Assembly (NCBI GenBank): GCA_026702755.1
Contig: JAPPBX010000017.1
Location: forward strand, 13,743 to 77,742
Source: Candidatus Poribacteria bacterium
Lineage (GTDB): Bacteria > Poribacteria > WGA-4E > WGA-3G
Direction of reading: 5' to 3'
Length of the DNA stretch: 64,000 nt
Shown here: positions 5,352 to 41,512 of the stretch, in pieces
How the letters are laid out: each line of letters begins with the position of its first letter
How positions within the stretch are numbered: position 1 is the stretch's first letter
Translations under genes and position numbers: made by a program
The notes under the pieces: generated by a model
Databases searched by the model: none
What the model was told of the DNA's origin: nothing
The model's input: the letters and a program-made list of their open reading frames with translations, nothing else

Positions 5352-8300
5352 ATGAAAAACAACGATGCTCAACTCATCCAACGCGTGCTTGAAGGCGATG
5401 ATACTGCGTTCTCCGTGCTTGTGAGAAAATATCAGAAATCCGTTCACGCACTGGCGTGGCGGAAGATCGGGGATTTCCATATCGCCGAGGATATTACACA
5501 GGATACCTTCCTGCAAGCGTATCAAAAACTCTCAACACTGAGAAAACCGCAGCGTTTCGCGGGTTGGCTCTATGTGATAGCAGCGAACTACTGCAAAATG
5601 TGGCTGCGTCAGAAACGTTTATCAACCCAGTCGTTGGAAAACACAAGCAGCGCGCAATTAGAAAAAGCAACCTATTCTGGATATGTTATTGAGGAAAACG
5701 AGCGGACAACAGCAGAAGCACAGCGCGAGATCGTCAAAAAGTTGCTTGCGAAGTTACAAGAGAGCGAGCGTACAGTCATCACCCTTTACTACCTTGGGGG
5801 AATGAATTATGAACAGATAAGCGAGTTTCTGGGTATGTCGGTTAGCGCGATTAAGAGCCGACTCCACCGAGCAAGACAACGATTAAAGAAGGAGGAACCG
5901 ATGATTCGAGAGGCTTTAGGCAACTTCCAAATTACACCAAATCTATCAGAGAATATTATGCGGGAGATTTCGCGTATGAACCCAATTGCGCCATCTAGCA
6001 GTAAACCGTTGGTGCCGTGGGCAATCGGCGTTTCCACATTAGTCGTTGTCTTTTTGATGGTAGGCGTTGGCAGTCAATACCTGTCGCGTTTCCAGAAACC
6101 CTACAGTTTCGATGCGACTTCGGAGATGACAGTTGAACTCATTGAAGCACCTATCGTGCTGAGCCTTGAATCCAAACCTGATGTCCGGACGCAGCTCGGA
6201 AACGTCAATACGCCAAGTAAGAACAATGCCTCTCATCGACAGCCTAATAAGGAAAAGTCTGTGGTTCACGAAACCTTGAAAGATTTCCAACACTCAGACG
6301 ATCTCGTGGAGGACATCATGAAATGGACTCGGGTACGTGAACCGGGTATATTGGGCGAAGTAGGTACCCTGTCAGGGACTTCGGAAAATACGCTCTATAC
6401 CGTTATAGGCGACAGGAGTATCTATAAGCTGCCATCGGGTGAGGAGGCGTGGCAACTTGTCGATGACACCTTCCTATATCAAAACACCGGCGGTAATATA
6501 CCCATAGCAGAGCGGGATGGTACACTTTATATTATCTTATCCAATGAATTGTATGCTTCCACTGATGATGGCGAAACTTGGCACTTCGTCGGCACCTGCC
6601 CCCAAGGGTATGTTAGGGAATTGAGGGTTACAGAAGATGCGCTTTACCTTTGTCTCAGTGACGGTATCTTCCGATCCGATGACGCTGGAAATTCTTGGAA
6701 GGATATAAGCAATGGCTTAGATGATCGCTTGTCCGAACACTCAGGAATTCATTCGTTACAAATGAGTCAAGGCACGCTATTTGTGAAAACCGATCTCGGA
6801 CTCTATCGTCTTGAGGCGGACACTTGGCAACACTTACGATTACCAGTAGATGAAGCCGTGCATGTTGGTTCTTTAGCGATATATGAGGACGAAATTTATG
6901 TCATAGCATCAGTGAATATTTTGGATTTCTATGGGGCTCCGAAAGATATTTGGGAGCGATTGTGGAAAGGCGAGATGCGTTCGTGGTGGATTTTCCGATC
7001 AACCGATGGGGGTGACGCATGGAAAGACATAACACCCATGAACGCTTGGAATCTGACGGGCTTCCGTCCGGATATAACGTTGATTACGACACGGAATACA
7101 CTCTTGGCAATCGGGAATGATGACGGTATGGTAGCACGCTCGGTTGATAGTGGAGACACTTGGACATCTATAGCGTCTTCAGGGATTTCTCCCATACAGT
7201 TCAGTGTGCGATGCGCTGTAGCTTTAGATGGAAACACATTTTATACGGGTGGCAGCAGTGGGATTCACCGTTCAACTGATGGTGGTAAGACGTGGCACCG
7301 CTTTCATACCGGACTGGAAAGTCGTGTTGATAATTTAGTTAGTTTCGTGGCAGATCAGGCACCAGACAGGTCTGCAGCACTTTACGCCAGCGTGGGTAAA
7401 CATTTTGTCAAATCGAACGATGGCGGAACATCCTGGGAGGCTGTCAGCTTGGCAGTGAACCCCAGTGCCCGTTTATCCCAAAAGCAACAACCGGAAATTG
7501 TGCAGGTAGCAAAAACTAATGGGGTGCTCTATGCAAAAGGAATTCAAGAAATTTATGAGACTGCTATTTTTCAGTTGTCTTCCGATGGTAATACTCTCAT
7601 CCCCGTTACAGGAACACCCCCTTCTTTAAGTTCATCTGGACTGGTGCAAAAAGTACTGGCGGGCAAGCGTTTCACTTTCAGAGACGAAAGACGATCAGTG
7701 CCGGAACTTCGCGTTGGCTTTTCTGGTGTAGCTGATGCCTTATTGGATGATTTATCAAAGACCCCTGATTTTGGGGCAGACAGTTTCTTTGAAAGATTGG
7801 TAGAGAGGCAAATAGACCCTCGAGTGGTCTATGAGTTAATACGGGAAGGATTATGGGGTAACTTCGCAGTCAGCGATGAAACGTTCTACATGGAATACAA
7901 CTATAAACTCTTCCGATGGAAACCTGGTGACCCAGAATGGCACGACACCGGTTTGGAGGAGACCGGTGAACTCCGTCGCGAGACCTTGTGGAGAGGCTTT
8001 AAAATCGCTGCATCGGACGGAACCGTCTATGTCGGTAAGCGGGATGGACATCTCTTACAATCGCTTGATGGGGGAGACACTTGGAATGATGTCACACCAA
8101 ATCTGCCCTTCTCTATCGAGCATTTCAAAGAGATAGTCTTTGCAGATTCAACGGTCTGCGTCGCGACTGATAAAGGGGTTTTTTATTCAAAAGATGGCGT
8201 TGTCTGGAATGTCCTTGTCGATGAGACGGGAAAACCTGTTATCATCAAGTCGTTATCTACAATAGGGGATTCCGTTTACGGTGCCAACGATGAAGGCATC

Positions 8301-17569: not shown

Positions 17570-17611
17570 GACTTATTCCCCCATAAGAAGCCGCTTCTAC
17601 CTCTTCTCAAG

Positions 17612-17800
17612 GTCACTAAGCAATTCAAAAGCGGTGTCAAGAACTGTCGGTTTCTTTGCACTATTTCTTAACATGAGCCACTTTTCCTCTGTGTTACACA
17701 CGATTCATCACTACCCTATGACATTCAAGGGTAGTGATGAATCTTATCGGCACTTATTTCAAAATAACCATCCGCTTCATCTGATGGAAAGACGGCGTGG
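17612..17800. repeat. Copy 1 of a ~180-bp conserved 3'-end element containing a 13-bp perfect inverted repeat (ttcatcactaccc ... gggtagtgatgaa)
   Basis: It is near-identical to 21817..21990 (aaggtcac[tg]aagcaattcaaaagcggtgtcaagaact.tcggtttctttgcactatttcttaacatgagcc ... ttcatcactaccc-loop-gggtagtgatgaatcttatcggcactta.ttcaaaataaccatccgctt). It overlaps the last codons of the 1078-aa gene. Confidence 0.6.
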
Positions 17801-20800
17801 ACAATCGGTAGAAATAAACACCACTTGAAACCCGCTCACCCACATCATTTCGACCATCCCAATAGGCAGCACGTGATCGACCTTGATAGAAACCCGCTGG
17901 CTTGAAGCCAAGCGAAAGCGTTCGCACCAATCGCCCTGTCGTATCGTAAATTGATAGCGTCACAGGGGCTGACTCCGAAAGGTGATAAGGTATCCACGTT
18001 TCCGGATTGAACGGGTTGGGATAATTCTGCAACACCAGGCTCTGCTTAGGTACGCCAATCCCCTTAAGTGTAATAGGAAGAACAGCGTTTGCAAGCGCCT
18101 CTGGTGTCACGACGAAACTCAGCTTCTCCGAAGCAATCTCTCCGGTTGCATCCGCAACGGTGACTTCCAGAGTGTCGCCAACCTGGACGACGCTCTGGTA
18201 GGAGAGATCGGCAGTCGCTGCGGCAAAGTAACCGTCTCGCACACGATTCGTCATAATAGCGTTCGTCCGCAGGTTTCGTACAGTGACCAGATAGCCTTCA
18301 AGGTTCTGCACACCTTCTAATTGCCCACTGACAACGAATGCCCAAGTACTACTTGGCGTGTCAATTGATCTTGCAATCGGTGCCGCAGGAACTTGCGGTT
18401 GATTTGTCCACGGTGCCCCGACAAAGGCAACCTGTCGGGCGTGCGGCACGTTGACGATGTATCCCTTTGCCCCTTCAATCGGGAATCCGTTGTCTGGTGC
18501 ATCCGGTGTCCAACCAACGAACTTTTGGTTGACATCATCAAGCTTAATTACCGTCGTTGCGCCAACCATCTCCGCCAGCGACCGAGCGTTCATCGGCGTG
18601 CGAGGCTTCAACGGTGAGGAGATCATGTTCAAGCCTTTGGAGAGAGAGGCGTAGTAGACCTGGCTGAAGTCATCTCCGTCTGTAGGCATTGGGGTGGCAA
18701 TGAAGCCGTGAGTCTGCTCTTCGCCGTCTTCCGAATGAATTTCAAACCAACCGACAATGACACCATCATCGTTAATGGCTTGTGCAACGGTGGTTTCTGC
18801 GCCGGGAATCCCGAATAGGTGAAACTCGCCCTCTGGAGTCCGTAGAAATCCCTGTACTTCAGAGAAATCAAGCGGCGCAGTGTGACCAACAATCCTGCCA
18901 TGATTGTCGATGTCATCGGGGAGCGTATGCCGCTCTGCGTTAATAGACAAAGTTGTGAACTCGCCATCCTCGTAAATTAGCCCATCAATAAACTCTGTTG
19001 GTGTAAATCCTGATTCAGGTAGATTCCAGCCCGCCATCACACCGGCGTTATTGATACCACGAAAAACATTGCCGCCAACACCGCCCGAAGAGGGAACTTG
19101 CCCGAAAGTCCCGTCCGGTTCGCGAAGAAAACTGGTGATGACGATGTCGTTTTCTGTTGGGAAATCGAAATGATACGAAGTGAGCTGACCGAGGTCGTTA
19201 ATGCCCCACCCGAAGTTATCGGCTGCACCCGGATTGACTGTGATAAACATACCGTCCGGTTCTCTCAGGAATCCGTGCTGCACGCCATCCGCGTCTTTAT
19301 ATCGACCCGTGATTTGGCCGGATGCATTGATTCCGAATGCCCGTGTGTCTGTTGCCCCTTCTGGAGCAATCGTCTCGAAGACACCATTTTTGAGCCAGAA
19401 TCCTTTCCGAACAGCGTTTGCATCCGCATAGCTCCCGACGATGTCTCCAGCGTTGTTGATACCGAAAAGCTCTGTCTCCGACGCACCTGCGAACGGTATA
19501 TCGACGACCTCAATATGATACGGTACACCTATTGTCAGGTGTATACCATCTGTGGAGAGGTCGGCGACAGACTCATGGCTGTGGTCAGCGTCATGTGATG
19601 GCGCAGGTCCCAGCGGTGCAACCCAATCCAAGGCTGTCATGTTCACTGGCTGCCCCTCGACAGAAAATGTCCTGCTGACTGATACTGTGTCAAGGTCAAC
19701 CTCAAGAATCTCACCGGTATTGGGATTGCTGACATAGGCGAACCCACTACCGACAGTCAGCGCGGGGCGGAGACCGTCCGCACCACTGAAATCTGCAACC
19801 ACTTGTGTCGATCCGAGCAACGTCCAATCGCTTGGGTTGAACACCTGTAACAGACCGTCAACGGTCAGCACTGCTAACCTATCTCCATGTTTCTTGTCAA
19901 AATCGAAACCTCTGTAGTCTGTTGGGAGTTGCTGAATGTCGTTCGGATCAAGCTCGGTCGAAGTGGGGTGGATACGGACGAGGGCTTTGTAGCCTGGATC
20001 CGGGCGGCTACCGTAATTGCCGATGGCAAACGGCTGGGCGTGATGAGACCTGACGATGCTCGTTCGCAGACCATCAGGATAAGCAATCTTGTGTGCGGAG
20101 AACAGACCGGTTACCGGGTCGTGGGTCATCACAAAAACGCCACCATCCCCCGTGCCATCCTCACGTTTCTCATTACAACCAGCTATGAAATGTTCACCGA
20201 CTATCGTTTCACCGTGCATACCGAGGCAGGATGCTTGGAAATCTTCCTTGTCGTTGAACGTTTGAACAATATTTCCGTGTTCATCAACTACCGCAAAGCC
20301 ACTCGGAAGTGATCCGAACTCACGGTCAGGATCCGGGAGCGAGAAAATTATCTTTCCACCGTGCACCGGTGCTCCAGCACCGTGCTGCGGCGCCGAGGTC
20401 AATATGAGCGTGTCCGGGTTGGGTAAGAACAGGTCTTCCTCGCGCACGGTGACGTTCTTTGAATCTACACCCTCACCAAAGTTGCCATCGAAGTGGATGT
20501 TAACGCGCCCATCGTGTGAAACAAAGTGAATGGGTCTTTGCGAGTTTGCGAGTTCGCCGGTCAGGTTGAACGGCAGCAAGCTCGGTCTGCCTTTCTCCTT
20601 ATCGAAATGATCGCCGTGTGCTTCGAGGTACAGACCGGAGTCGATGAAATTAACGCGATTGGCACCCGCTTGAACAGCGACTGCGATGCGCCCGCTTTCG
20701 GTCGTGTAAACACGTGCAGACCCTTCCACCATGAAGGTTTCTATCACTTCTCCATTGTCAAGTTCAATAAGTTGGAGTAAACCGGTTTCGCCATCTGCGA

Positions 20801-20927
20801 CAAGTAACCGACCCAGCGGCTCAGCATGCTCATCATCATACTCTTGTGCGATGGCTTGCATTGAGAGGATCGAACAAGACATCAAAAACATAAGCAGAGC
20901 CAGGGTGGCTCTCATGCAAGTAACCAT
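17754..20927 (-). CDS. Large secreted surface protein: N-terminal beta-propeller-like region (possibly AztD-like zinc chaperone fold), central HAF-family repeats, and a T9SS-type C-terminal sorting domain
   Basis: The ORF is open from 20990 (TTG). The likely start is the Met right after the conserved leader element (MVTCMRATLALLMFLMSCSILSMQAIA signal peptide). HAF-like repeats (FGINNAGDIVG, AFGINASGQITG, GWGINDLGQLT, FRGINNAGVMAG, AQAINDDGVIVG). C-terminal VLQNYPNPFNPETWIPYHL...VTLSIYDTTGRLVRTL...WDGRNDVGERVSSGVYFYRL is typical of TIGR04183/FlgD-Ig-like CTDs. Confidence 0.7.
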   Translation of the reverse strand: MVTCMRATLALLMFLMSCSILSMQAIAQEYDDEHAEPLGRLLVADGETGLLQLIELDNGEVIETFMVEGSARVYTTESGRIAVAVQAGANRVNFIDSGLYLEAHGDHFDKEKGRPSLLPFNLTGELANSQRPIHFVSHDGRVNIHFDGNFGEGVDSKNVTVREEDLFLPNPDTLILTSAPQHGAGAPVHGGKIIFSLPDPDREFGSLPSGFAVVDEHGNIVQTFNDKEDFQASCLGMHGETIVGEHFIAGCNEKREDGTGDGGVFVMTHDPVTGLFSAHKIAYPDGLRTSIVRSHHAQPFAIGNYGSRPDPGYKALVRIHPTSTELDPNDIQQLPTDYRGFDFDKKHGDRLAVLTVDGLLQVFNPSDWTLLGSTQVVADFSGADGLRPALTVGSGFAYVSNPNTGEILEVDLDTVSVSRTFSVEGQPVNMTALDWVAPLGPAPSHDADHSHESVADLSTDGIHLTIGVPYHIEVVDIPFAGASETELFGINNAGDIVGSYADANAVRKGFWLKNGVFETIAPEGATDTRAFGINASGQITGRYKDADGVQHGFLREPDGMFITVNPGAADNFGWGINDLGQLTSYHFDFPTENDIVITSFLREPDGTFGQVPSSGGVGGNVFRGINNAGVMAGWNLPESGFTPTEFIDGLIYEDGEFTTLSINAERHTLPDDIDNHGRIVGHTAPLDFSEVQGFLRTPEGEFHLFGIPGAETTVAQAINDDGVIVGWFEIHSEDGEEQTHGFIATPMPTDGDDFSQVYYASLSKGLNMISSPLKPRTPMNARSLAEMVGATTVIKLDDVNQKFVGWTPDAPDNGFPIEGAKGYIVNVPHARQVAFVGAPWTNQPQVPAAPIARSIDTPSSTWAFVVSGQLEGVQNLEGYLVTVRNLRTNAIMTNRVRDGYFAAATADLSYQSVVQVGDTLEVTVADATGEIASEKLSFVVTPEALANAVLPITLKGIGVPKQSLVLQNYPNPFNPETWIPYHLSESAPVTLSIYDTTGRLVRTLSLGFKPAGFYQGRSRAAYWDGRNDVGERVSSGVYFYRLSTPSFHQMKRMVILK

Positions 20928-21000
20928 AAATCGTGAAATAGCGACAGAAAAGTCGCGCTGAAAAAAATACGTAAACAATGTATTCTCCAATTTTTTTATC
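20928..21000 (-). promoter_or_regulatory. Conserved 5'-UTR element (copy A) that abuts the start codon and contains the GCGAC-N6-GTCGC stem-loop
   Basis: mRNA sense is aaaaaaattggagaataca.tgtttac.tatttttttc.g.gcgacttttctgtcgctatttc.cgatt.ATG. It is shared almost base-for-base with 26254..26330. Confidence 0.55.
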
Positions 21001-21335
21001 TAATTAGGGCTTACGCAGATCGCTCTTTTGTAGCATAAACTCTCTAACGAAGCGTCATAGACTCAAAATTGCGTAAGTCCTGCTAAATGAAATTACACTT
21101 AACGGCGAACATGCCACGCGAAACATATAAAACGCGTGTTGACATGTAGCCAGTAACGGATGCTTTGCGTAATAGATGTGCTTATGGACATCCCGAAAGC
21201 CGACCACGCATGGGTCCACAATCAGATAGCGTCTACTACAGAGCAAAGCAGCGGTGTACAAAGCGCGGGGCGCGTCATAGGTAACCCCGCGATCTTCGTA
21301 CAATCAAGGATATAAAGGAAAAACAAAATCTGCCT

Positions 21336-21707
21336 TTAAAAGGCATAATTTGCGAGTTCAGTGGAGAATACAGGTGGGGCACGACTTCGGGTGTGGATGA
21401 CCAGTTTTAGAGGGATAGAAGTGTCTTCATAAAGTCGGAGTTCAGTATGAAAAAAGAAAGGTGCGTTGAGAGCAAAAGGTTCAACCTCGAAACTGACGTG
21501 CTGGCTGCAAAAGAAGCAGGCTGCACAGGTATTCTCGCGCTGCGAGTGTTCGCTAGGGCAATGCTGGCAATGCGAATGTTCGCTATGATCGTGTGTCAGT
21601 TCGATGAGACCCAGCAGCGCGACGTAGCAACATAAACCTGCTAAAACACAGATTTTCAAACTACGCCTAAATATTAACTTGTTGGGAAAAGTCGTACCGT
21701 TTCTCAT
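21336..21707 (-). CDS. Small membrane-anchored His/Cys-rich protein (copy A)
   Basis: MRNGTTFPNKLIFRRSLKICVLAGLCCYVALLGLIELTHDHSEHSHCQHCPSEHSQRENTCAACFFCSQHV. There is a paralog at 26873..27220 with many synonymous codon differences over the first ~50 codons (GGT/GGC, CCC/CCA, TGC/TGT, TAC/TAT, CAC/CAT), which argues for a real coding gene under purifying selection. A consensus promoter lies 45-50 nt upstream. Confidence 0.6.
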   Translation of the reverse strand: MRNGTTFPNKLIFRRSLKICVLAGLCCYVALLGLIELTHDHSEHSHCQHCPSEHSQRENTCAACFFCSQHVSFEVEPFALNAPFFFHTELRLYEDTSIPLKLVIHTRSRAPPVFSTELANYAF

Positions 21708-21783
21708 ACACCAGAACCTATGGTTATGATTAAAAAAAATGAATGCGAATAAACTTGACGTAAATTATAGCACGCGATTGTGT

Positions 21784-21812
21784 CAATGTCAAATAGAACT
21801 TAAAAAGTTGAT
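21784..21812 (-). promoter_or_regulatory. Perfect-consensus sigma-70 promoter (TTGACA-17-TATAAT) reading toward the small His/Cys ORF and leader A
   Basis: The minus strand reads tTTGACAttgacacaatcgcgtgcTATAATtta. The -35 hexamer is duplicated in tandem (TTGACATTGACA). Confidence 0.6.
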
Positions 21813-21816
21813 AAGG

Positions 21817-21990
21817 TCACGAAGCAATTCAAAAGCGGTGTCAAGAACTCTCGGTTTCTTTGCACTATTTCTTAACATGAGCCGTTACACTCCTGCGAAT
21901 ATACAGATTCATCACTACCCAATGACCTTCAAGGGTAGTGATGAATCTTATCGGCACTTACTTCAAAATAACCATCCGCTTGAACGGTTT
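21817..21990. repeat. Copy 2 of the ~180-bp conserved 3'-end element with a 13-bp hairpin (ttcatcactaccc aatgaccttca agggtagtgatgaa)
   Basis: See 17612..17800. It lies immediately 3' of the ZnuA-like gene (minus strand) and its last bases overlap that gene's stop. Confidence 0.6.
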
Positions 21991-22954
21991 ATAACTCCGA
22001 TTTCCCAATCAAAGCATGGACAATCGTATCAATATTATGTCGGATCATCCCGATGTAGGTACCTTCAGGAGTTCCCTCGTTTCCCATAGCATCTGTGAAG
22101 AGCACACCACCGATCTTCACATCAAATCCTTTTGACTTCACAGCGGCTTTCACGGCTTCGAGACTCCGTGGAGAGACGGATGACTCTACAAAAATAGCAG
22201 AGATACGCCGGTCCGCAATAAACGTCGCCAATTCCTGTACATCAGCGATACCGACTTCTGTCGCAGTGCTAACACCTTGTAATCCGCGCACCTCAAACCC
22301 GTACCCCTTTCCGAAGTAGTTAAAACAGTCGTGCGCCGTCACAAGGACGCGTTGCTGAGATGGCACGCGTTCCACTTGCGACTTTACGTATGCGTCGAGT
22401 TCCATGAGTTTCGTGAGGTAGCGTTCAGCATTGCTTCGGTATAGGACAGTATTATCCGGATCGAATTCACTCAGGGCATCGCGAACCTTTCCCGCCGCTA
22501 GCATCCAAAGTTTCACGTCAAACCATAGGTGCGGATCGTAGAGTCCCTCGTATTCTGCGGGTGTTAGCAGTAGACTCCGATCTACGGCATCTGTTACGGC
22601 GACCGTCAGCGTGTCCTCCGACATCTTCGCAAGGATGTCCACCATTTTTGCTTCAAGGTGCAGCCCGTTATAGAAGATGATGTGTGCTGAACTCAGTTTT
22701 TGAACATCTTTAGGTGTCAGGTTGTAAAAGTGTGGGTCTACGCCAGGTTCCACTATCCCGGTCACCTCAACGCGCGTACCGCCAACATTTTTAACAATAT
22801 CAGTAATCATACCGATCGTGGCAACAACGCGAAGTTTGTCGCCTGTGGCAGCACCCGGTTGTCCCTTCGGATCACAGCCAGCCCATACCAATATACCTAT
22901 CAAACACACTGAAATGTATATTCTCTGCATAATTTTATGCATTTTCTGCCTCAC
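21989..22954 (-). CDS. znuA: Periplasmic metal (Zn/Mn)-binding lipoprotein of an ABC uptake system, ZnuA/TroA family
   Basis: Lipoprotein signal (...LIGILVWAGC). TroA-fold signatures (LRVVATIGMITDIVKNVGG, VDPHFYNLTPKDV, DPHLWFDV, VTAHDCFNYFGKGYGFE). No znuB or znuC gene is adjacent. Confidence 0.75.
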   Translation of the reverse strand: MRQKMHKIMQRIYISVCLIGILVWAGCDPKGQPGAATGDKLRVVATIGMITDIVKNVGGTRVEVTGIVEPGVDPHFYNLTPKDVQKLSSAHIIFYNGLHLEAKMVDILAKMSEDTLTVAVTDAVDRSLLLTPAEYEGLYDPHLWFDVKLWMLAAGKVRDALSEFDPDNTVLYRSNAERYLTKLMELDAYVKSQVERVPSQQRVLVTAHDCFNYFGKGYGFEVRGLQGVSTATEVGIADVQELATFIADRRISAIFVESSVSPRSLEAVKAAVKSKGFDVKIGGVLFTDAMGNEGTPEGTYIGMIRHNIDTIVHALIGKSEL

Positions 22955-23408
22955 ATGTTAAACAGGTCTTACAGAGGTGCCGATTCACGAGATGCGCGGA
23001 GGCGATTAAAACGCCGCCGATACTGTAGAAGACCACTTCAAAAGTGCCTTCAACGGCTATCTGAGCGGTAGCGATGAATGCTAACGCCGCTATCAGTACC
23101 AAAAACGCTCGCCAGTTTCGGTGGCGTCGAACACCCCACGCTAAACTCCCGATTGCCAGTCCAATTGCGCTCGCAATAAGGATAAACTCAACACGCTCAT
23201 TCGCAAGGAAACTCAACCCAATCAAAGGTAAAACTGTTCCTAAAAGCGGCATCGCGAGGCAGTGGATCGCGCATGCGAAAGGGAGACACGCCGCGCACGC
23301 GACAGAGAGACACGCGCCAGTTGTATTCGCCAATTCGTGGTTAAAATATCTTTTCAATTTTATCTCCTTAGAAAATCGAGAACGGCGGGCGATGATAGAA
23401 ATCATCAT
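22935..23408 (-). CDS. MerC-family inner-membrane metal transport protein
   Basis: TM1 Cys motif GACLSVACAACLPFACAIHCLA (compare MerC GCAACFPALA). LIGLSFLANE. C-terminal CKTCLTCE. Four predicted TM helices. Confidence 0.55.
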   Translation of the reverse strand: MMISIIARRSRFSKEIKLKRYFNHELANTTGACLSVACAACLPFACAIHCLAMPLLGTVLPLIGLSFLANERVEFILIASAIGLAIGSLAWGVRRHRNWRAFLVLIAALAFIATAQIAVEGTFEVVFYSIGGVLIASAHLVNRHLCKTCLTCEAENA

Positions 23409-23423
23409 CCCCGTCCTACAATT

Positions 23424-25703
23424 TTAAAAATTAAGTTTATACAAGAGTTTCGCATTCCGTCCTGGTTCCGGCATCGCCGATTTGATGCGGGACAGATGTT
23501 CGCGATACGTTGTATCAAAGAGGTTTTCAATCTCGAAAACGACCATGTTCTCAAGCTGCCACCACGAAAAATTGAGATAGCTCCCGATATCATAGACGAG
23601 ATAGCCGTCTGTCGGTTCCTCAAATTCACCGAGTCGGGTCTGGCTGCCTGAAAAACGGGACGCGACATACAAATGCAACGGGGCAGGCGTGTAACTGATG
23701 ACGAATTTACCGTTGAGGGGTGGGACACGCTCCAGCGGTCGCCCATTGCTTTGAATCGTTCCGTTGACGTAACTCATATTGAGCTGAAGATGGACTTGCG
23801 GCAGGACCTCACTCCCTATTTGGATTTCAGCCCCATCCATCACAACGTCGTGTCCCATGTATTGATAAATCCACAACCATCCTGCTGCGCCGCTGCCCCA
23901 CTCTTTTTCACCGCTGTTCATCGGAACGAGATAGTTCTGTATCTGATTCCTGAAAAGCGCAAGATTGAGTCTGAATCTGTCGTCTGCGTATTTGACGAAG
24001 AGTTCAGTGCCGTATCCGTTTTCGGGTCCCAGTTCTGAATTGCCGATTTCGTAGGAATAGACAGCCAAGTGCGGACCATCGCTGAAAAGCTCCTCGATCC
24101 CCGGTGCGCGAAACGTTTTCATCAGGGTAGCCCCGGTACTTAGCCTATCCGTCCAATGATAAATTCCAGAGGCAGCCCCTGAGAAACCGTTGAAATCGCG
24201 GCGTTGGACGGCTCCGGCTCGGACAACTGCCCCAGGTCTAAACGGTTCCGAACGTCTAATGTCGTAGCGGATAGCCCCTTGTAAGGTGAGTTTGTCGAAG
24301 TTACGCTGGTTTAGATAAAATCCCGCCAACGCGAGCTCACGGGTGTGAGGAGTCCAGTAAAATCCGTCTGTGGCGTGGTCTCGGTATTCCCACGAAACAC
24401 CTGCAATCGCGTTGTCTAATAGATGCGCCATCGCTGAGACGTTGTAGGTTAACAGACCGAATTCGACACCAAGTCTCCCGTTGGATTCCCATTCCTGATG
24501 CTGATAACGCGTATAGGCAGTCTGGAGTTTTACCTTTTCAAGTATTGCTGTATTGAAGCGGTACTCCATCTGTCCTTCATAACGTTGCTTGTCGAGTTCG
24601 ATGTTGACCCCGCTAATATGTCCTTCTGGTGAGCCGGGAACGCCGTAATCTGAACGATAACTGCTTCCCGAGGCACCGATGAAACCCCACGGCTTAATCA
24701 GCGAAGCACCGCCTGAAAAATTAACATTTGAAAGGGCAGTGTTTTTGAGTACACCTACCGGCGTTTGTATGTCAGATGCAAGCCGCCGATTCCATTCTAT
24801 ATTTCCCGCAAAATCACCAATTGGGAACGTAAAACCTGTCGTTCCGGTCAAACCTGAGTTGACAGATTCACCTTGGAACGTTAGATGCATATCCAGCCGT
24901 CTCGGTAGAATTTGCGGTATGTGATTGCTTTTGACATTGATGACACCGCCCAACGTACTTGAGCCGTAAATGAGCGATGCGGGACCCCGCGTAATTTCAA
25001 CACCTTCAGCGATCGTCGGATCAATCGATACGGCATGGTCGGCACTGGATGCCGATTTATCGCCCGTTCGCTCGCCGTTTTCGAGAATAAGCAGCCTGTC
25101 ACCGCCCAATCCACGAATAACGGGACGCGCAATCGCCCGTCCCATCGTTCGTTGTGAAATGCCCGTCTCATCTGCCAATGTGTTCGCCAAGGTCATCCCT
25201 AACCGTCTTTGGAGTTCCGCTTCACCCAATGCTAAGTCGGTTGTTTCCTCAAACTGTGAAAGAGAGCGATTTGAACCGTATACCCTGATGGTTTGCAGTT
25301 GAAACGGCAACGTCTCCAGTTCAATTTTGAGATAAGGCGTGGAGGCATTGACATCAATTACCTGTTCAAACCGCTGATAACCGACCTTCAGAAACTGGAG
25401 CGTCTGTTGTCCTTCCGGCACTGCGTCAAATTTAAACCGACCGTTTGCATCGGTCCGGACGCTTCCCTCAAGTCCCGCAATCTGGACTCTCACTCCACCA
25501 AGTCGAGCATGCGTCCGTACTTCCGTAACTTCTCCTTCCAAGGATCGCATTGGGTTCTGTGCACTTTGGGAATCCCTGAGATAGCAAAATAGGCATACTA
25601 TTATCCCAGACACCAACACGAGTAGGTAGGGACGCTTTCTAAGAATCCCTACCGTGGGAGATCTATGCGGACAGGCACAAGTGCTTGAACAAGTGCTTAA
25701 CAT
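23424..25703 (-). CDS. TonB-dependent outer-membrane receptor with an N-terminal carboxypeptidase-regulatory-like domain (ZnuD-like role inferred from context)
   Basis: CarbopepD_reg-like segment (GEVTEVRTHARLGGVRVQIAGLEGSVRTDANGRFKFDAVPEGQQTL). Plug (ITRGPASLIYGSSTLGGVINV). Long beta-barrel. C-terminal aromatic residue (...LLYKLNF). Confidence 0.8.
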   Translation of the reverse strand: MLSTCSSTCACPHRSPTVGILRKRPYLLVLVSGIIVCLFCYLRDSQSAQNPMRSLEGEVTEVRTHARLGGVRVQIAGLEGSVRTDANGRFKFDAVPEGQQTLQFLKVGYQRFEQVIDVNASTPYLKIELETLPFQLQTIRVYGSNRSLSQFEETTDLALGEAELQRRLGMTLANTLADETGISQRTMGRAIARPVIRGLGGDRLLILENGERTGDKSASSADHAVSIDPTIAEGVEITRGPASLIYGSSTLGGVINVKSNHIPQILPRRLDMHLTFQGESVNSGLTGTTGFTFPIGDFAGNIEWNRRLASDIQTPVGVLKNTALSNVNFSGGASLIKPWGFIGASGSSYRSDYGVPGSPEGHISGVNIELDKQRYEGQMEYRFNTAILEKVKLQTAYTRYQHQEWESNGRLGVEFGLLTYNVSAMAHLLDNAIAGVSWEYRDHATDGFYWTPHTRELALAGFYLNQRNFDKLTLQGAIRYDIRRSEPFRPGAVVRAGAVQRRDFNGFSGAASGIYHWTDRLSTGATLMKTFRAPGIEELFSDGPHLAVYSYEIGNSELGPENGYGTELFVKYADDRFRLNLALFRNQIQNYLVPMNSGEKEWGSGAAGWLWIYQYMGHDVVMDGAEIQIGSEVLPQVHLQLNMSYVNGTIQSNGRPLERVPPLNGKFVISYTPAPLHLYVASRFSGSQTRLGEFEEPTDGYLVYDIGSYLNFSWWQLENMVVFEIENLFDTTYREHLSRIKSAMPEPGRNAKLLYKLNF

Positions 25704-25713
25704 GGGAGTCCCC

Positions 25714-26253
25714 TTATTGAACAGTTACCGGTATGAGAAGTGCTCCCGTGAAGTCTGGATGGTCCCCGTGAAGGAGTTGAAGTTTGATGCTCGTTTCGCC
25801 TGCCTTCAATCCCTCGAGTCCAAATCCTAATTCTTCACCATGTTCTTCTTCACCATGTTCTTCTTCACCGTGTTCGTGTTCATCTTCATGTTCCAGATGA
25901 ATCTCAATAATAGCGGAATCGTACTCCGACAAGCCCAAGTTGAAGACTTCCTCATGTCCATGCTCATCCACTGCCTCTACTTCATCGAGATGGACTTCCG
26001 CTTCGTTCGCGTCAATAAATACAACATGGACCTCAATCTCTTCACCAACGCCAACGGTGAGACCGCCTTCATGGGCACCTTGATGTTGATGATAGACCAC
26101 TTCTCCATTAACTTCCAGGTTAAAGCCGTCGGCATCGGCATGCATGGGGGCATCCGTTTCGTGGTCGTGGTCATGGTCATCTTCAACAATAGGGTTGTCA
26201 CTTTCGCCACAACCTCCCATGAGGGGAAGTACGGTGACAAAAGTTAGTAACAT
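25714..26253 (-). CDS. His/Asp/Glu-rich periplasmic lipoprotein (putative low-affinity zinc-binding protein)
   Basis: The likely start is the Met right after the conserved leader element (MLLTFVTVLPLMGGCG, lipobox LMGGC). His-rich tracts (EDDHDHDHETDAPMHADADG, HLEHEDEHEHGEEEHGEEEHGEE, LLHGDHPDF). The ORF as printed continues upstream to 26385 by translating the conserved leader. Confidence 0.65.
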   Translation of the reverse strand: MLLTFVTVLPLMGGCGESDNPIVEDDHDHDHETDAPMHADADGFNLEVNGEVVYHQHQGAHEGGLTVGVGEEIEVHVVFIDANEAEVHLDEVEAVDEHGHEEVFNLGLSEYDSAIIEIHLEHEDEHEHGEEEHGEEEHGEELGFGLEGLKAGETSIKLQLLHGDHPDFTGALLIPVTVQ

Positions 26254-26330
26254 TAATCGAGAAATAGCGACAGAAAAGTCGCACCGAAAAAAATAGGTAA
26301 ACATTTGTATTCTCCAATTTTTTTTAAACT
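26254..26330 (-). promoter_or_regulatory. Conserved 5'-UTR element (copy B) that abuts the start codon and contains the GCGAC-N6-GTCGC stem-loop
   Basis: Plus strand reads cgagaaatagcgacagaaaagtcgcaccgaaaaaaataggtaaacatttgtattctccaattttttt. Compare 20941-21000 gaaatagcgacagaaaagtcgcgctgaaaaaaatacgtaaacaatgtattctccaattttttt. Confidence 0.55.
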
Positions 26331-26872
26331 TTTTTAATCTGATGGTACACAGTATGTGCCCATTGCTTCTAAAATGGAATTGCACTTAACAACGAAAATG
26401 CCACGCGAAAGATATAAAACGCGCGGTGACATGCCGCGAGTATCTCATGCTTTGTTAAAATAATAGATGTACCTATAGACTTCCTAAAAGCGTACCATTC
26501 ATTGATACACAATTAGGTAGCATCTACTATAACCCAAGTTGCTACTAACAAATTTTGGTGTTTGTGCTTGGGTATTTCTGTGTGTTTCAACACCACTTTT
26601 CAAGTATTTCCTCACCCCAGATGAAGTTTAATAAAATATTTGGGTAATTCTATGTTCTCCAGACCCGGTAGGTGCGGTTTCCCAACCGCACCGGGCATCG
26701 GTAAAAATTACCCGATTAAATTCTTAATCTTCATGAGAGGCGATATATCTATAGAATATAGAAGAACACCACAATATGTTGCAAAGCAGAGATGTACAAA
26801 GCGCGGGACGCGTAAATAAGGACCCGCAATCTTTGGACAATAAGAGATATAAAGGAAAAACAAAATCTGCCT

Positions 26873-27220
26873 TTAAATGGCATAATTTGCGAGTTCAGTG
26901 GAAGGTATAGGCGGGGCACGACTCCAAGCGGTCGTGGTAAATCTTAAAGGAAGAAAAACGATTTCATACAGCGGAAGCGTCGTACTTGGAAGAAACGGAG
27001 AGGTGAGTACTACCACCTCAATTTCCTCTCCGACGTGTTGGCTGTTGTAGACACAGGCTGTACAAGTTTCCTCAGAATGCGCGTGTTCACAATGATCGTG
27101 ATCATGCGTGAGTGCTATGACACTCAGCAACGCAACATAACAAAATAAACCTATTAAAATGCCGGTTTTCAAACTACGCCTAAAGACAAGCGTGTTTGGA
27201 AAAGCGATGCCGTTTCTCAT
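26873..27220 (-). CDS. Small membrane-anchored His/Cys-rich protein (copy B)
   Basis: MRNGIAFPNTLVFRRSLKTGILIGLFCYVALLSVIALTHDHDHCEHAHSEETCTACVYNSQHV. See the paralog at 21336..21707. Confidence 0.6.
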   Translation of the reverse strand: MRNGIAFPNTLVFRRSLKTGILIGLFCYVALLSVIALTHDHDHCEHAHSEETCTACVYNSQHVGEEIEVVVLTSPFLPSTTLPLYEIVFLPLRFTTTAWSRAPPIPSTELANYAI

Positions 27221-27273
27221 AACCTATGCCTGTGTTATTATCAAAGCTCAGATTGCCAACAAACTTGCGATAT

Positions 27274-27302
27274 ATTATATCATACGATTATGTCAATGTC
27301 AA
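27274..27302 (-). promoter_or_regulatory. Perfect-consensus sigma-70 promoter (TTGACA-17-TATAAT) for the small His/Cys ORF and leader B
   Basis: The minus strand reads tTTGACAttgacataatcgtatgaTATAATatatcgc. The -10 is embedded in the palindrome GATATA-A-TATATC. Confidence 0.6.
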
Positions 27303-27459
27303 ATAAAAGTGGAAATCATACCAGAACCATTTAGTTTTCTTGTAGGAGGGATCCCCGAATTCCGACTGCTGACACCCTCTCAGAAAAGATAGGCTTGCAC
27401 TTATCGGCGCGATGCTTTATCATATTCACCATGAGATTACCCAAAGGAGACATAATTAG

Positions 27460-33164: not shown

Positions 33165-33953
33165 ATGAAGAATGCAGTATTGACTTACAAGTTCTCCCCT
33201 TACGGGGTCGTGTGTTTCTTGGTAGCGTTGTCTATGATCCTCGCGCCGTTTGTTTCGGCTAACTTTGAAGAGGGACTTGTCCTGAATCACCATTACGATG
33301 AGGGGCAAGGCACACTTGCTGCAGATGCCAGCGGACATGGGCACGATGGCGAAATTTCCAATCCAGAGTGGGTCGATGGTAAATTCGGGAAGGCACTCAG
33401 ATTTGGTGGTGAAGGCAGCGACGTTTTCGTTACCGTTGAGAGTACGGCTGCCTTGAATGTAAACGAGTGTACGTTTATGGCGTGGATTAACGCCGATCAT
33501 TGGAATGGGGTACGCCAAATTGTTGGCAAATCCGTCCACGGTGGTTGCGCCGGTAGAACGCAATACGGCCTGTTTAGTGAAGGTGGTGTTTTCAAAGTCC
33601 GCTTTGAAACTGAAAACGGCAGAGCCGACATTTCAACGGATCTTCCACCAACCGGTGAATGGGTTCACGTCGCTTTTACCAACGATGGTGCAATGGCGAA
33701 AATCTATATTAATGGCAGCTCAGTTGTTGAAGGCGCGGTCCCGGGTCCACTGAGAGCGAACGACGATCCCTGGCGGATCGGACAGGACTGTGAACGTCTC
33801 AACTACGTCTTCGCAGGTGCTATAGACGAAGTTCGTCTCTGGAACCGTGCGTTGACGACTGCTGATATTGGTGAGTTAATGCCTTCAGCCGTTGCTGTTG
33901 ACGCTCGCGGAAAATTGGCGACCACTTGGGGCAGTATCAAAACTGCTCATTAA
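33165..33953 (+). CDS. Secreted LamG_3 / concanavalin A-like protein (paralog 3)
   Basis: Signal peptide. GLVLNHHYDEG, CTFMAWIN, NDDPWRIGQDCERLNYVFAGAIDEVRLWNRALTTADIGELM. C-terminal tail GKLATTWGSIKTAH. About 75% identical to paralog 4. Confidence 0.75.
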   Translation: MKNAVLTYKFSPYGVVCFLVALSMILAPFVSANFEEGLVLNHHYDEGQGTLAADASGHGHDGEISNPEWVDGKFGKALRFGGEGSDVFVTVESTAALNVNECTFMAWINADHWNGVRQIVGKSVHGGCAGRTQYGLFSEGGVFKVRFETENGRADISTDLPPTGEWVHVAFTNDGAMAKIYINGSSVVEGAVPGPLRANDDPWRIGQDCERLNYVFAGAIDEVRLWNRALTTADIGELMPSAVAVDARGKLATTWGSIKTAH

Positions 33954-36119: not shown

Positions 36120-36896
36120 ATGAAATTGGCTATTTGTTTATCTATCGCCTTGCTTTTGATGGTGACACCCTTCGCTATGTCTATTGGTCCAGGAGAATTT
36201 CTGGACGGTTTAGTGCTATACCATCCCTATGATGAAGGGAAAGGGGCCAAAGCCGAAGATTTTAGCGAAAATGAACACGAGGGTGTAATTGACAACCCGA
36301 AGTGGGTTAACGGAAAATTCGGAAAGGCATTGGAATTTGGTGGTCCAGGCAGCGACGTTTTTGTCACAGTTGAGAGCACTCCAAAACTGAACGTGGATGA
36401 ATTCTCGTTTATGGCGTGGATCAACTCCGAGGAATGGAATGGTGTCCGTCAAATCGTCGGCAAATCCGTTCATGGTGGATGCGGCGGTAGGGTCCAATAC
36501 GGCGTGTTCAGTGAAGGAGGGGTCTTCAAAATCCGTCTCGAAACCGAATCGGGGCGCGCCGATATTGCAACCGATCTACCTGAGACTGGGGAATTTGTGC
36601 ATATCGCTTTCACCAACGATACCAAGAAAACCAAAATCTACTATGATGGCAAAGAGGTACAGGAGGGAGATACGCCCGGGAAACTCAAAGCCAACGATGA
36701 TCCCTGGCGGGTTGGACAGGATTGCGACCGTCTCCAGTATGTTTTTGCAGGGATTATTGACGAAGTTCGTCTCTGGAATCGCGCATTGAGCGAGGAGGAA
36801 ATCAATACGTTTATGGATCAGGGCGTAGAGGCACTCGCGGTTGAAGCAACTGGGAAACTCTCCACAACCTGGAGCCGTCTTAAAGCAGGACTTTAA
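36120..36896 (+). CDS. Secreted LamG_3 / concanavalin A-like protein (paralog 4)
   Basis: Signal peptide MKLAICLSIALLLMVTPFAMS. GLVLYHPYDEG. NDDPWRVGQDCDRLQYVFAGIIDEVRLWNRALSEEEI. C-terminal tail GKLSTTWSRLKAGL. Confidence 0.75.
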   Translation: MKLAICLSIALLLMVTPFAMSIGPGEFLDGLVLYHPYDEGKGAKAEDFSENEHEGVIDNPKWVNGKFGKALEFGGPGSDVFVTVESTPKLNVDEFSFMAWINSEEWNGVRQIVGKSVHGGCGGRVQYGVFSEGGVFKIRLETESGRADIATDLPETGEFVHIAFTNDTKKTKIYYDGKEVQEGDTPGKLKANDDPWRVGQDCDRLQYVFAGIIDEVRLWNRALSEEEINTFMDQGVEALAVEATGKLSTTWSRLKAGL

Positions 36897-40483: not shown

Positions 40484-40565
40484 TTATCGGTTATCAGTTA
40501 CCTTGTTGTGGCACCAAAAGTTTTGTGGACATTACAGCATATCTGAACACCATAGCACATTAACT

Positions 40566-40619
40566 TTAACCATCAACTCGTCTACAGATACTTTTGCTAA
40601 GGCGCAAGTTGATGGTTAA
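40566..40619 (+). ncRNA. Hairpin RNA-like motif, copy 1: variable 8-11-bp stem enclosing the conserved loop TCTACAGATACTTTTGCTAAGGCGC
   Basis: ttaaCCATCAACTCGtctacagatacttttgctaaggcgCAAGTTGATGGttaa. Strand is inferred from the flanking genes. Confidence 0.45.
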
Positions 40620-40650
40620 AACTGAAGACTGATAACCGACAACCCTAAAA

Positions 40651-41298
40651 ATGATACAGTTGCACCAGGTTAGTTTCAGTTATGGCGATCTTAGTGTGCT
40701 CGAGAAGGTGAGCTTTCGCGTGGAACGCGGCGAATTTGTGTTTCTCCTCGGTCCAAGTGGCTCAGGGAAGACAACACTGTTGCGATTGTTATATGCTGAT
40801 TTAGAGCCGATTGGTGGTGATTTGAGTGTCGTTGGGCAACCCCTTGCACGGTTGGACAAAGTCAGTCTACCCTACTTTCGACAGAAGATAGGGATTGTTT
40901 TTCAAGATCTTAAGTTCTTGGCAGATAAAACGGTCCAGGATAATCTGGCACTGCCGCAGCGATTGGTAGGAACACCACCGCAGACAATCAAAGAAAACGT
41001 ACACAAGCTCCTGAATCAGATGGGATTGCTTCACCATCAAAATGCACTTCCAGCAGAAATATCTGGCAACGAGAGGCGACGGCTTGCTATAGCAAGAGCC
41101 GTTATCAACAATCCTCTGTTATTACTTGCGGATGCACCCACAGAGGGCTTAGATTTGCGCCTTTCGCTTGAGGTAATGGCACTTCTTGATGCACTTAATT
41201 TTCAAGGTATGACTATCTTTGTGGCGACGAGTGATCGACAACTCGCTGAGAAATGTAATAAGCGGATTATTGAGCTACGGGATGGTGGTATCCATTGA
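40651..41298 (+). CDS. FtsE-like ABC transporter ATP-binding protein with substituted catalytic residues
   Basis: Walker A LLGPSGSGKTTLL. Q-loop IVFQD. Signature ISGNERRR (canonical LSGGEQQR). Walker B LLLADAPTEGLD (canonical ADEPTGNLD; catalytic Glu replaced by Ala). H-loop VATSD (canonical ATHD). Confidence 0.75.
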   Translation: MIQLHQVSFSYGDLSVLEKVSFRVERGEFVFLLGPSGSGKTTLLRLLYADLEPIGGDLSVVGQPLARLDKVSLPYFRQKIGIVFQDLKFLADKTVQDNLALPQRLVGTPPQTIKENVHKLLNQMGLLHHQNALPAEISGNERRRLAIARAVINNPLLLLADAPTEGLDLRLSLEVMALLDALNFQGMTIFVATSDRQLAEKCNKRIIELRDGGIH

Positions 41299-41352: not shown

Positions 41353-41490
41353 ACCGGCAACTTTGACCAAGAACTCGCCTACAGATACTTTTGCTAAGGC
41401 GCGAGTTCGCATTAAACCAGAGCCTCTCAAACCGGCAACTTTGACCAAGAACTCGTCTACAGATACTTTTGCTAAGATGCAAGTTCTTAG
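41353..41490 (+). ncRNA. Hairpin RNA-like motif, copies 2 and 3 (tandem ~80-bp direct repeat, each with a stem enclosing the CTACAGATACTTTTGCTAAG loop)
   Basis: accggcaactttgaccaaGAACTCGCctacagatacttttgctaaggcGCGAGTTC and accggcaactttgaccaAGAACTcgtctacagatacttttgctaagatgcAAGTTCTTag. The stems differ between copies but stay complementary. Confidence 0.45.
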
Positions 41491-41512
41491 TCAAAACCGA
41501 CAACTATAAAAA

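Follow-up and report, generated by a model that had tools for sequence, protein, structure and literature searches.

Introduction

What is the role of two small related genes that each stand first in a unit of putative zinc-uptake genes? The question is raised by a stretch of 64,000 nucleotides (nt) from a Candidatus Poribacteria bacterium (NCBI GenBank assembly GCA_026702755.1, contig JAPPBX010000017.1, positions 13,743 to 77,742), the whole of which is called the window in this report. Its minus strand, on which all features of the two units are located, carries two small open reading frames (ORFs), copy 1 at 21707..21336 with 123 amino acids (aa) and copy 2 at 27220..26873 with 115 aa. Our analysis indicates that they are very probably upstream ORFs (uORFs) for predicted arrest peptides of the CruR/CutF type. 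Taking the system as a whole, we lean towards the view that the nascent chain senses zinc and that its arrest of the ribosome switches the operon on. What the sequences show directly are the features of the family, its conservation, the complementary segments, the RNA folds and the neighbouring genes; the arrest, its polarity, the zinc ligand and the parts played by Rho and by a hairpin at the stop codon are inferred from them.

To our knowledge, metal-sensing arrest peptides have been shown experimentally only for copper so far, in CruR and CutF, and the control of zinc uptake is thought to be almost wholly transcriptional, via Zur. If our interpretation is true, a conserved clade heading zinc-uptake operons extends nascent-chain sensing to zinc.

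Family Assignment of the Small Proteins

CruR (Bp2923) of Bordetella pertussis, a DUF2946 protein, is encoded by a uORF; in this protein CXXC serves as the copper sensor and RAPP, at the C-terminal end, as the motif for ribosome arrest (PMC9426467). The arrest permits the expression of a TonB-dependent importer, and copper relieves it, which leads to Rho-dependent termination (PMC9426467). Mutants of RAPP and CXXC and the dependence on the distance between the two motifs have been studied, and this spacing was found to matter (PMC9426467). The arrest was also observed in vitro, where toeprinting located one proline codon of RAPP in the P site and the other in the A site (PMC12992588). CutF of Rhodobacter capsulatus, a further member of this family, undergoes co-translational export and stalls on copper binding (PMC9973294); through the stalling, a stem-loop that otherwise hides a ribosome-binding site is opened (PMC9973294; bioRxiv 10.1101/2025.02.05.636593).

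The two window proteins have a comparable layout. In copy 1, a single membrane/export segment is located at codons 19-37 (ICVLAGLCCYVALLGLIEL; 21597..21653, Kyte-Doolittle 2.4), with five K/R and no D/E on its N side and one K/R and four D/E on its C side, and this distribution of charges in the sequence implies an N-in/C-out topology of the peptide. To judge from its sequence, the segment could equally be an uncleaved anchor and not a cleaved signal peptide. The AlphaFold2 model of the small protein was of low confidence (predicted local distance difference test, pLDDT, 60), and only the membrane helix exceeded 70. A putative metal-sensing segment, whose composition is dominated by His, Asp and Glu, follows at codons 39-71 (HDHSEHSHCQHCPSEHSQRENT-CAAC-FFCSQHV; 21495..21593, with CAAC at 21516-21527). 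The CxxC motif reads C61-A-A-C64 in copy 1 and C53-T-A-C56 in copy 2. The residues H39, H41, C61 and C64 of copy 1, and the equivalent H39, H41, C53 and C56 together with RAPP in copy 2, were invariant in 42 close relatives; in 35 distant relatives H39, C61 and C64 remained invariant and H41 was kept in at least 90% (copy 1 numbering).

The RAPP codons (CGT GCC CCA CCT) are codons 109-112 of copy 1 (21372..21383) and are found at 26909-26920 in copy 2. RAPP was invariant in all 59 extracted Poribacteria copies, and in every one of them its arginine is located 48-49 residues after the first Cys of CxAC. The motif is 11 residues from the C terminus in the window copies, the two prolines being residues 111-112 of 123 in copy 1 and 103-104 of 115 in copy 2, and these positions, the size of the proteins and the length of the leaders fit the rule set for CutF-like proteins (Ozturk et al. 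2023). A preliminary description of the window, made from the sequence alone, had given both ORFs and their shared motifs correctly, with the right coordinates on the minus strand, and RAPP was absent from its list of those motifs.

Profile searches agreed with this layout in part. Copy 2 matched positions 49-117 of the 117 positions of Pfam DUF2946 (PF11162; gathering threshold 23.7 bits) with 17.0 bits (E 0.011), and the Pfam search gave no match of copy 1 to PF11162. Among the homologues, 26 of 42 close ones matched at E<=0.1 (best E 6e-6) and 12 of 35 distant ones at E<=0.01, always to the C-terminal end of the profile, and one relative carries a precomputed PF11162 assignment. On profile comparison the window proteins appear as divergent relatives of DUF2946 and not as formal Pfam members. 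An NCBIfam search found no meaningful match for either small protein, and a PDB sequence search with the family profile returned chance-level matches only. The earlier statement that no described family matches was thus mistaken, given the homologues that match PF11162 and the hallmarks of CruR/CutF. We place the small ORFs in the CruR/CutF class because they combine an N-in/C-out segment, a His-rich stretch with CxxC, RAPP at a fixed spacing, the first position in the operon and a long leader. By analogy with CruR, the Poribacteria uORFs would arrest the ribosome at RAPP.

Homologues and Selection

The two copies share 54% identity (BLASTP, E 8e-44), and the ratio of non-synonymous to synonymous rates between them (dN/dS, Nei-Gojobori) was 0.33 overall and 0.20 in codons 1-42. 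The preliminary description had stated that their DNA differs mainly at synonymous third positions over about the first 50 codons. This was overstated: in codons 1-42 there are 9, 6 and 14 differences at codon positions 1, 2 and 3, synonymous and non-synonymous counts are equal (14.5 each), and only the per-site rates differ, approximately fivefold (dS 0.87, dN 0.17).

We found 77 close homologues of the small ORFs, all from Candidatus Poribacteria where the source is named. A search of 1.8 billion proteins gave 41 representatives at 50% identity, and 48 loci in species-level genomes carry a homologue. The reading frame was intact from the start codon to RAPP in 59/59 copies. Pooled over these copies, dN/dS from the start codon to RAPP was 0.35 (dS 0.69); it was 0.25 (dS 0.88) for the His/Cys motif, among the lowest values in the uORF, and 0.23 (dS 0.31) for the segment around RAPP, and it rose to 0.93 (dS 0.44) in the last eight codons. 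Per-codon synonymous entropy was not decisive alone in these closely related sequences. Homologues down to ~20% identity retain the order of transmembrane segment, His, CxxC and RAPP. The proposal of purifying selection therefore held on a wider set of sequences, with homologues well outside the duplicated region and no frame-disrupting indels as far as RAPP.

The 3' end of the uORF behaves differently. Between copy 1 and copy 2, dS was 0.36 in the last 18 codons against ~0.9 elsewhere, and the DNA is near-identical for ~60 nt beyond the stop codon, which bears out the earlier remark that about the last 15 codons are conserved. The tail after RAPP varies from 4 to 43 aa among the 59 copies, and the nucleotide sequence there can be aligned even where the stop codon shifts or the frame changes. 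The last eight codons are neutral as protein and constrained as nucleic acid. The nucleotides after RAPP are constrained because an anti-Shine-Dalgarno (anti-SD) sequence and a terminator-like hairpin, T1, lie there, and a C-rich tract is a third element in this part of the uORF. The conserved end had been read as a coincidence with conserved leader DNA; it holds the RAPP codons, the anti-SD and the hairpin instead.

RNA Elements around the End of the uORF

The anti-SD of copy 1 is an 11-nt sequence, (U)GUAUUCUCCA, from the last base of RAPP onward (21362..21372). It is the perfect 11-bp complement of UGGAGAAUACA, the ribosome-binding region of an AztD-like gene 357 nt downstream, which is located at 20976..20989 together with the likely start codon TTG (20978-20976) of that gene. 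This start was set by homology with MFTYFF... in the copy 2 unit and in orthologues. The leaders between the uORF and the next gene cover 357 nt in unit 1 (20979..21335) and 568 nt in unit 2 (26305..26872, with a ~240-nt insertion relative to leader 1), and they range from 136 to 576 nt across loci. Leader 1 folds with a minimum free energy (MFE) of -135 kcal/mol (z = -5.6 against shuffles), its outermost helix being that of the anti-SD with the Shine-Dalgarno sequence, and leader 2 has a z of -4.5.

The support for this pairing consists of register controls, within-locus ranking and distant lineages. In 41 of 46 Poribacteria loci, the 14-mer after RAPP outranked all other windows (340-890 sliding windows per locus) as a partner of the ribosome-binding region. 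Of the cells in the helix, 84.9% were paired, compared with 32-58% when the register was slid. The MFE fold of the whole leader is closed by this helix even in leaders of 136-236 nt that are unrelated in sequence. In the distant loci the region after RAPP was the best partner in 5 of 7, with the sequences changed on both sides, as in locus L051 (GUCCUCUG with CGGAGGAC) and locus L054 (GUAUUCUCCG with CGGAGGAUAU); in locus L050 the RAPP codons themselves (GCUCCUCCU) pair with GGAGGAG. These data suggest that the anti-SD probably acts by a shielding of the downstream ribosome-binding site. Within the window, the motif TGGAGAATAC is confined to the two ribosome-binding sites, and its complement to the anti-SD of copy 1. 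We considered a trans-acting role of the anti-SD for the whole regulon, which this motif count neither supports nor excludes.

Upstream of RAPP there is a C-rich, G-poor, rut-like stretch (21384..21473 in copy 1, C/G 3.6 in a 78-nt window). Over the 59 copies, the 102 nt that end at RAPP contain 34.5% C and 15.3% G, against 23% and 22% in the remaining uORF, and only 4.2% of control coding segments reach the median of the uORF. The geometry of this C>G bubble is that of the cruR rut region (PMC9426467), and by this analogy Rho may be involved at the C-rich tract. The leaders are not C-rich, and no obvious rut site was found within them.

At the stop codon of the uORF lies T1, a terminator-like hairpin followed by a U tract (21319..21353 in unit 1, with the stop codon 21336-21338 in the apical loop; 26856..26890 in unit 2, with the stop codon 26873-26875 in the loop, -8.4 kcal/mol and 8 U in the next 12 nt). 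The stop codon falls in the apical loop of a hairpin in 44 of the 59 copies. A terminator-like hairpin of at least -6 kcal/mol with a U-rich tract was present at the stop in 36/59 copies compared with 8/539 control stops; the stop-codon hairpins differ among lineages. A second hairpin, H2, follows at 21255..21303 (UGUACGAAG..CGCGGGG...CCCCGCG.CUUUGUACA; -24 kcal/mol) and at 26793..26840 in unit 2, and it shows compensatory changes at four pairs. RNAalifold on a mixed MAFFT alignment found no structure, with two leader subgroups misaligned, and because the alignment mixed these subgroups the T1 and H2 pairs were defined by hand and then counted. In total, 84.8% of their cells were paired against 31-53% in slid registers, and 45 cells with double changes were counted against 21±4 in shuffles, none of 500 shuffles being as high. 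Rfam contained no family for the leaders, T1 or H2. We treat T1 as a likely pause or termination point.

Proposed Mechanism and the Opposite Wiring

We propose that the N-terminal segment would insert N-in/C-out, with the His-rich/CxxC segment outside the cytoplasm or just past the exit tunnel, and that at this moment the ribosome, 48 residues further on, would arrest at RAPP. With the second Pro codon in the A site, the anti-SD would lie at +6 to +16 from the P site, within the mRNA channel of the arrested ribosome; this placement follows from the published toeprint (PMC12992588) and the standard footprint geometry. At low zinc, the arrested ribosome would cover the 11-nt anti-SD and, together with queued ribosomes, also the C-rich rut-like stretch. 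The distant ribosome-binding site would then be open, Rho would be unable to load, no termination would occur, and the operon would be on. At high zinc, the nascent His/Cys segment, at least 48 residues from the peptidyl-transferase centre, would bind zinc and the arrest would be released. After ~11 further codons the ribosome would meet the stop codon in the T1 loop and leave; the exposed anti-SD would pair with the ribosome-binding site across the folded leader, which would turn the operon off, and the exposed rut-like tract would permit termination at or after T1. The anti-SD and Rho outputs would then share the same sign, which suits uptake genes. By analogy with CruR the metal may release the arrest, and on this polarity our judgement is evenly balanced.

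Taken together, the predicted arrest site, the anti-SD that follows it, the rut-like tract and the hairpin loop with the stop codon would form an RNA design in which one arrest could govern transcription and translation over a long leader. We tentatively suggest that these are the first zinc-responsive arrest peptides, with two outputs on one RNA, the anti-SD acting over 140-570 nt and termination at the stop-loop hairpin. As part of the same tentative claim, the system would merge the mechanisms of CutF and CruR for a whole zinc-acquisition island, possibly without a Zur-type repressor.

Several observations weigh against this interpretation. Covariation of the anti-SD helix within Poribacteria was not above shuffles, both sides being simply conserved, and the VFS codons could be conserved for the sake of the peptide. 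In copy 2 the sequence after RAPP is degenerate (AUACCUUCCA, 26899-26909), its pairing has only -5.0 kcal/mol, and 117 other windows outpair it. Neither window protein reaches the gathering score of PF11162. All zinc assignments of the neighbouring genes score below the equivalog cutoffs, and CxxC is a classic Cu(I) motif. Finally, T1 is free to fold ahead of the arrested ribosome, and if it is an efficient terminator, arrest would mean that the operon is off.

This last point leads to an explanation in which the same peptide family works with a CutF-like polarity and a pyrBI-like attenuation. Here zinc would prolong the arrest, and the held-back ribosome would let T1 form and shut the operon off; without zinc, the ribosome, following RNA polymerase, would cross T1 as far as the stop codon in its loop, so that no hairpin forms, transcription reads through and the operon is on. 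In its favour are the frequent stop codons in hairpin loops (44/59) and the excess of terminator-like hairpins over control stops (36/59 vs 8/539). T1 also starts 19 nt past the A-site codon, and so it is left unmasked by an arrested ribosome, and the stalling of CutF is metal-induced. However, under this wiring the conserved pairing of anti-SD and Shine-Dalgarno sequence would be purposeless, and repression by an uncovered anti-SD would fall in the very state in which the operon has to be expressed. Moreover, T1 is weak and AU-rich (~-10 kcal/mol), and the C>G bubble ahead of RAPP suits the arrangement of CruR. We therefore regard the opposite wiring as unlikely.

Metal Specificity

The operons are zinc-type as judged from the sequences of their proteins. 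The best solved relative of the binding protein is the zinc-binding TroA (PDB, E 1e-86) and its best NCBIfam model is AztC; the best model of the receptor is ZnuD. The gene that follows copy 1 encodes a protein with a zinc-chaperone domain of the AztD type, and a COG0523 GTPase (ZigA-like) is located in the neighbourhood. The copper partners that are usual in cruR operons (PCuAC, YcnI, CopC, PepSY) were all absent from the Poribacteria operons examined. Our literature search found no paper tying an arrest peptide to zinc uptake. In the CutF survey, most of the family is associated with copper and some members with nickel or cobalt; the survey leaves zinc, ZnuA and MerC unmentioned and predicts sensors for other metals.

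On this evidence zinc is probably the sensed metal. It could be argued that copper, or nickel or cobalt, is sensed and imported instead, as CxxC is the copper-sensing motif of CruR, the family linkage in the survey is to these metals, and TroA-type proteins and TonB-dependent receptors are not strictly metal-specific, with scores below the equivalog cutoffs in our case. Against this, the best models are all zinc ones (TroA/AztC, ZnuD, AztD and the ZigA-like COG0523 protein), the four copper partners are lacking, and His, Asp and Glu predominate in the sensing segment. A metal other than zinc seems to us an improbable ligand.

Alternative Roles of the Small Proteins

The preliminary description had offered three guesses for the function, namely zinc-sensing leader peptides, membrane zinc chaperones and zincophore-related peptides. 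The first of them is favoured by our results, and the other two are not. Stable membrane-anchored zinc-binding proteins, as a chaperone or a partner of the receptor, or precursors of a secreted zincophore, would agree with the membrane anchor and with the purifying selection on the N-terminal and His/Cys parts, the first position in the operon being then incidental. Such a role leaves the invariant RAPP at a fixed distance from CxxC unexplained, and likewise the neutral tail of variable length (dN/dS 0.93 in the last eight codons) and the conserved RNA elements around the 3' end of the uORF. The proteins have no confident fold outside the helix (pLDDT 60), the operons contain no genes for peptide maturation or export, and neither CruR (PMC9426467) nor CutF is detectable as a mature protein. 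We consider a stable product very unlikely. That the ORFs are untranslated and only DNA or RNA is conserved would fit the nucleotide constraint at the 3' end of the uORF and can practically be dismissed, being already contradicted by the conserved frames (59/59 to RAPP), by dN/dS of 0.25-0.35 with dS of 0.66-0.88, and by the order of transmembrane segment, His, CxxC and RAPP in homologues of ~20% identity.

Promoters, Regulated Genes and Neighbouring Elements

A promoter of the form TTGACA-17 nt-TG-TATAAT, with 12/12 matches to the sigma-70 consensus and an extended TG, stands just ahead of each small ORF (21764..21792 in unit 1, 27274..27302 in unit 2), in line with the earlier view that each is first in its own unit. 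Most of the 59 Poribacteria copies have a near-identical promoter. Its spacer, together with about the first 20 bases of the transcript (..ACAATCGTATGATATAATTTATCGCAAGTTTATTGGCA), hardly varies between Poribacteria species (21741-21805 and 27251-27315; loci L001-L047), and this conservation far exceeds the needs of the -35 and -10 hexamers. The conserved region may be an operator for a repressor such as Zur; no defensible Zur-like palindrome was found in it when judged against the known Zur boxes, none of which is from Poribacteria.

The regulated gene of unit 1 (17754..20978) encodes a protein of 1078 aa with an AztD-like domain (NCBIfam AztD, 133 bits; cutoff 400), HAF repeats and a Por_Secre_tail, that is, a tail of the type IX secretion system (T9SS)/FlgD-Ig kind. 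In this unusual architecture the AztD-like beta-propeller occupies residues 64-453 and is fused to the HAF repeats and the T9SS/FlgD-Ig sorting domain, an arrangement suggestive of a zinc scavenger that is secreted or exposed at the surface. The AztD-like gene is missing in several genomes, and there the COG0523 gene comes directly after copy 1.

The regulated operon of unit 2 (21989..26316, with the ribosome-binding region at 26307-26316) encodes a His-rich lipoprotein of 200 aa (26304..25714), a ZnuD-like TonB-dependent receptor (25703..23424), a MerC-like membrane protein (23408..22935) and a TroA/AztC-like binding protein (22954..21989). The order of uORF, His-rich lipoprotein, receptor and MerC-like protein is kept in ~45 Poribacteria loci. 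The module headed by the uORF extends beyond Poribacteria to distant lineages with a related gene order, in which that of unit 2 is kept at least partly. Poribacteria and distant relatives alike have the MerC-family protein as a constant member between receptor and binding protein, and in one distant locus it adjoins an ATP-binding cassette (ABC) ATPase; it may be an inner-membrane zinc importer.

The first genes of the two units, those for the lipoprotein and the AztD-like protein, are otherwise unrelated, yet they share a ribosome-binding context and a signal peptide, MFTYFFxRDFSVAISR, whose DNA is 91% identical over 53 nt (20919-20978 and 26245-26304, minus strand). A start of this type recurs in distant lineages (MFTYYFEQNISVTISR; locus L049, 6587-6650), and the first codons of the regulated genes may belong to the regulatory module.

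The module of copy 1 and the AztD-like gene is flanked by a ~170-nt repeat with 96-97% identity (17609-17777 and 21813-21981, minus strand), which holds a 15-bp perfect hairpin (GATTCATCACTACCC...GGGTAGTGATGAATC); one repeat copy encodes approximately the last 8 codons of the AztD-like gene. A gene for a 197-aa protein stands after the AztD-like gene in the window and between the binding-protein gene and copy 1 in other Poribacteria. Given this changed position and the flanking repeats, recombination between the repeats seems to have shifted the module or inserted it anew. In leader 2, a GC-rich hairpin element (CCGGTGCGGTTGGGAAACCGCACCTACCGGG, 26664-26687) is located inside the ~240-nt insertion (~26540-26780). 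A similar element was seen in the tail/T1 region of the uORF copy of locus L020 (13519-13537) and upstream of the copy of locus L042 (6303-6321), and it looks like a short mobile or repetitive element of Poribacteria.

Elsewhere in the window, a ~69-nt repeat with an inverted repeat occurs in three copies (40562-40630, 41359-41427 and 41437-41505), which flank the ORF 40651-41298. Two pairs of paralogous coding segments (1199-1498 with 7844-8143, and 33270-33569 with 36204-36503; 72-77% DNA identity) indicate further local gene duplications.

Comparison with Known Systems

CruR/CutF proteins and RAPP arrest peptides are already known as a kind. What is new is a His-rich, zinc-associated clade, missed by Pfam, in an uncultivated phylum of sponge symbionts and some relatives. 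Also new, as predicted from the sequences, would be an anti-SD directly behind the predicted arrest site that acts over hundreds of nucleotides, and a conserved hairpin whose loop contains the stop codon. The family falls below Pfam thresholds, and as a result sponge-symbiont genomes list its genes as 'hypothetical'. In uncultivated phyla the module also serves as a marker of zinc-acquisition islands.

CruR is similar in many respects. In both cases, a small exported peptide heads an operon with a TonB-dependent metal importer; CXXC and RAPP are present, with 49 residues from C90 to R139 in CruR and 48-49 in Poribacteria; and the uORF has a C>G bubble towards its 3' end, with a long leader after it. 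The proposed polarity in Poribacteria, in which the metal would release the arrest and turn the uptake genes off, is that of CruR, and the low confidence of the fold is as reported for CruR. The Poribacteria operons differ in being zinc-type, whereas that of CruR is copper-type. The Poribacteria peptides have a long His-rich stretch ahead of CxxC and ~11 codons after RAPP in place of 3, and their leader is strongly folded and 136-576 nt long compared with 162 nt in CruR. They also have the anti-SD right behind RAPP and the hairpin with a U tract at the stop codon, match PF11162 below the threshold, and come from another phylum.

With CutF the Poribacteria peptides would share the principle of a co-translationally exported nascent metal sensor whose stalling frees the shielded ribosome-binding site of the next gene. 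On the other hand, CutF has CxxxC, PPP and a short intergenic stem-loop, and its copper-induced stalling switches on a detoxifying oxidase, whereas the target in Poribacteria is an uptake system. In addition, the anti-SD of Poribacteria lies inside the uORF and would pair across 140-570 nt; the authors of the CutF studies thought such pairing unlikely for long spacers.

Other systems share single features. ApdA/ApdP and SecM (RAGP) have a RAPP-like motif near the C terminus and an N-terminal membrane or signal segment, and their arrest exposes a downstream ribosome-binding site, but they monitor Sec/YidC activity and not a metal, and they are without the His/Cys motif. CzcI and CC2720 of Caulobacter are small DUF2946-like proteins encoded first in zinc-related operons; those operons serve Zn/Cd/Co efflux and not uptake, and CzcI is without the proline motif. 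The pyrBI leader responds to nucleotide supply and that of tnaC to free tryptophan in the tunnel, and neither involves a long-range anti-SD. They resemble the Poribacteria units in that the end of the leader ORF overlaps a hairpin with a U tract (pyrBI) or the ORF blocks Rho (tnaC), so that the position of the ribosome decides the outcome.

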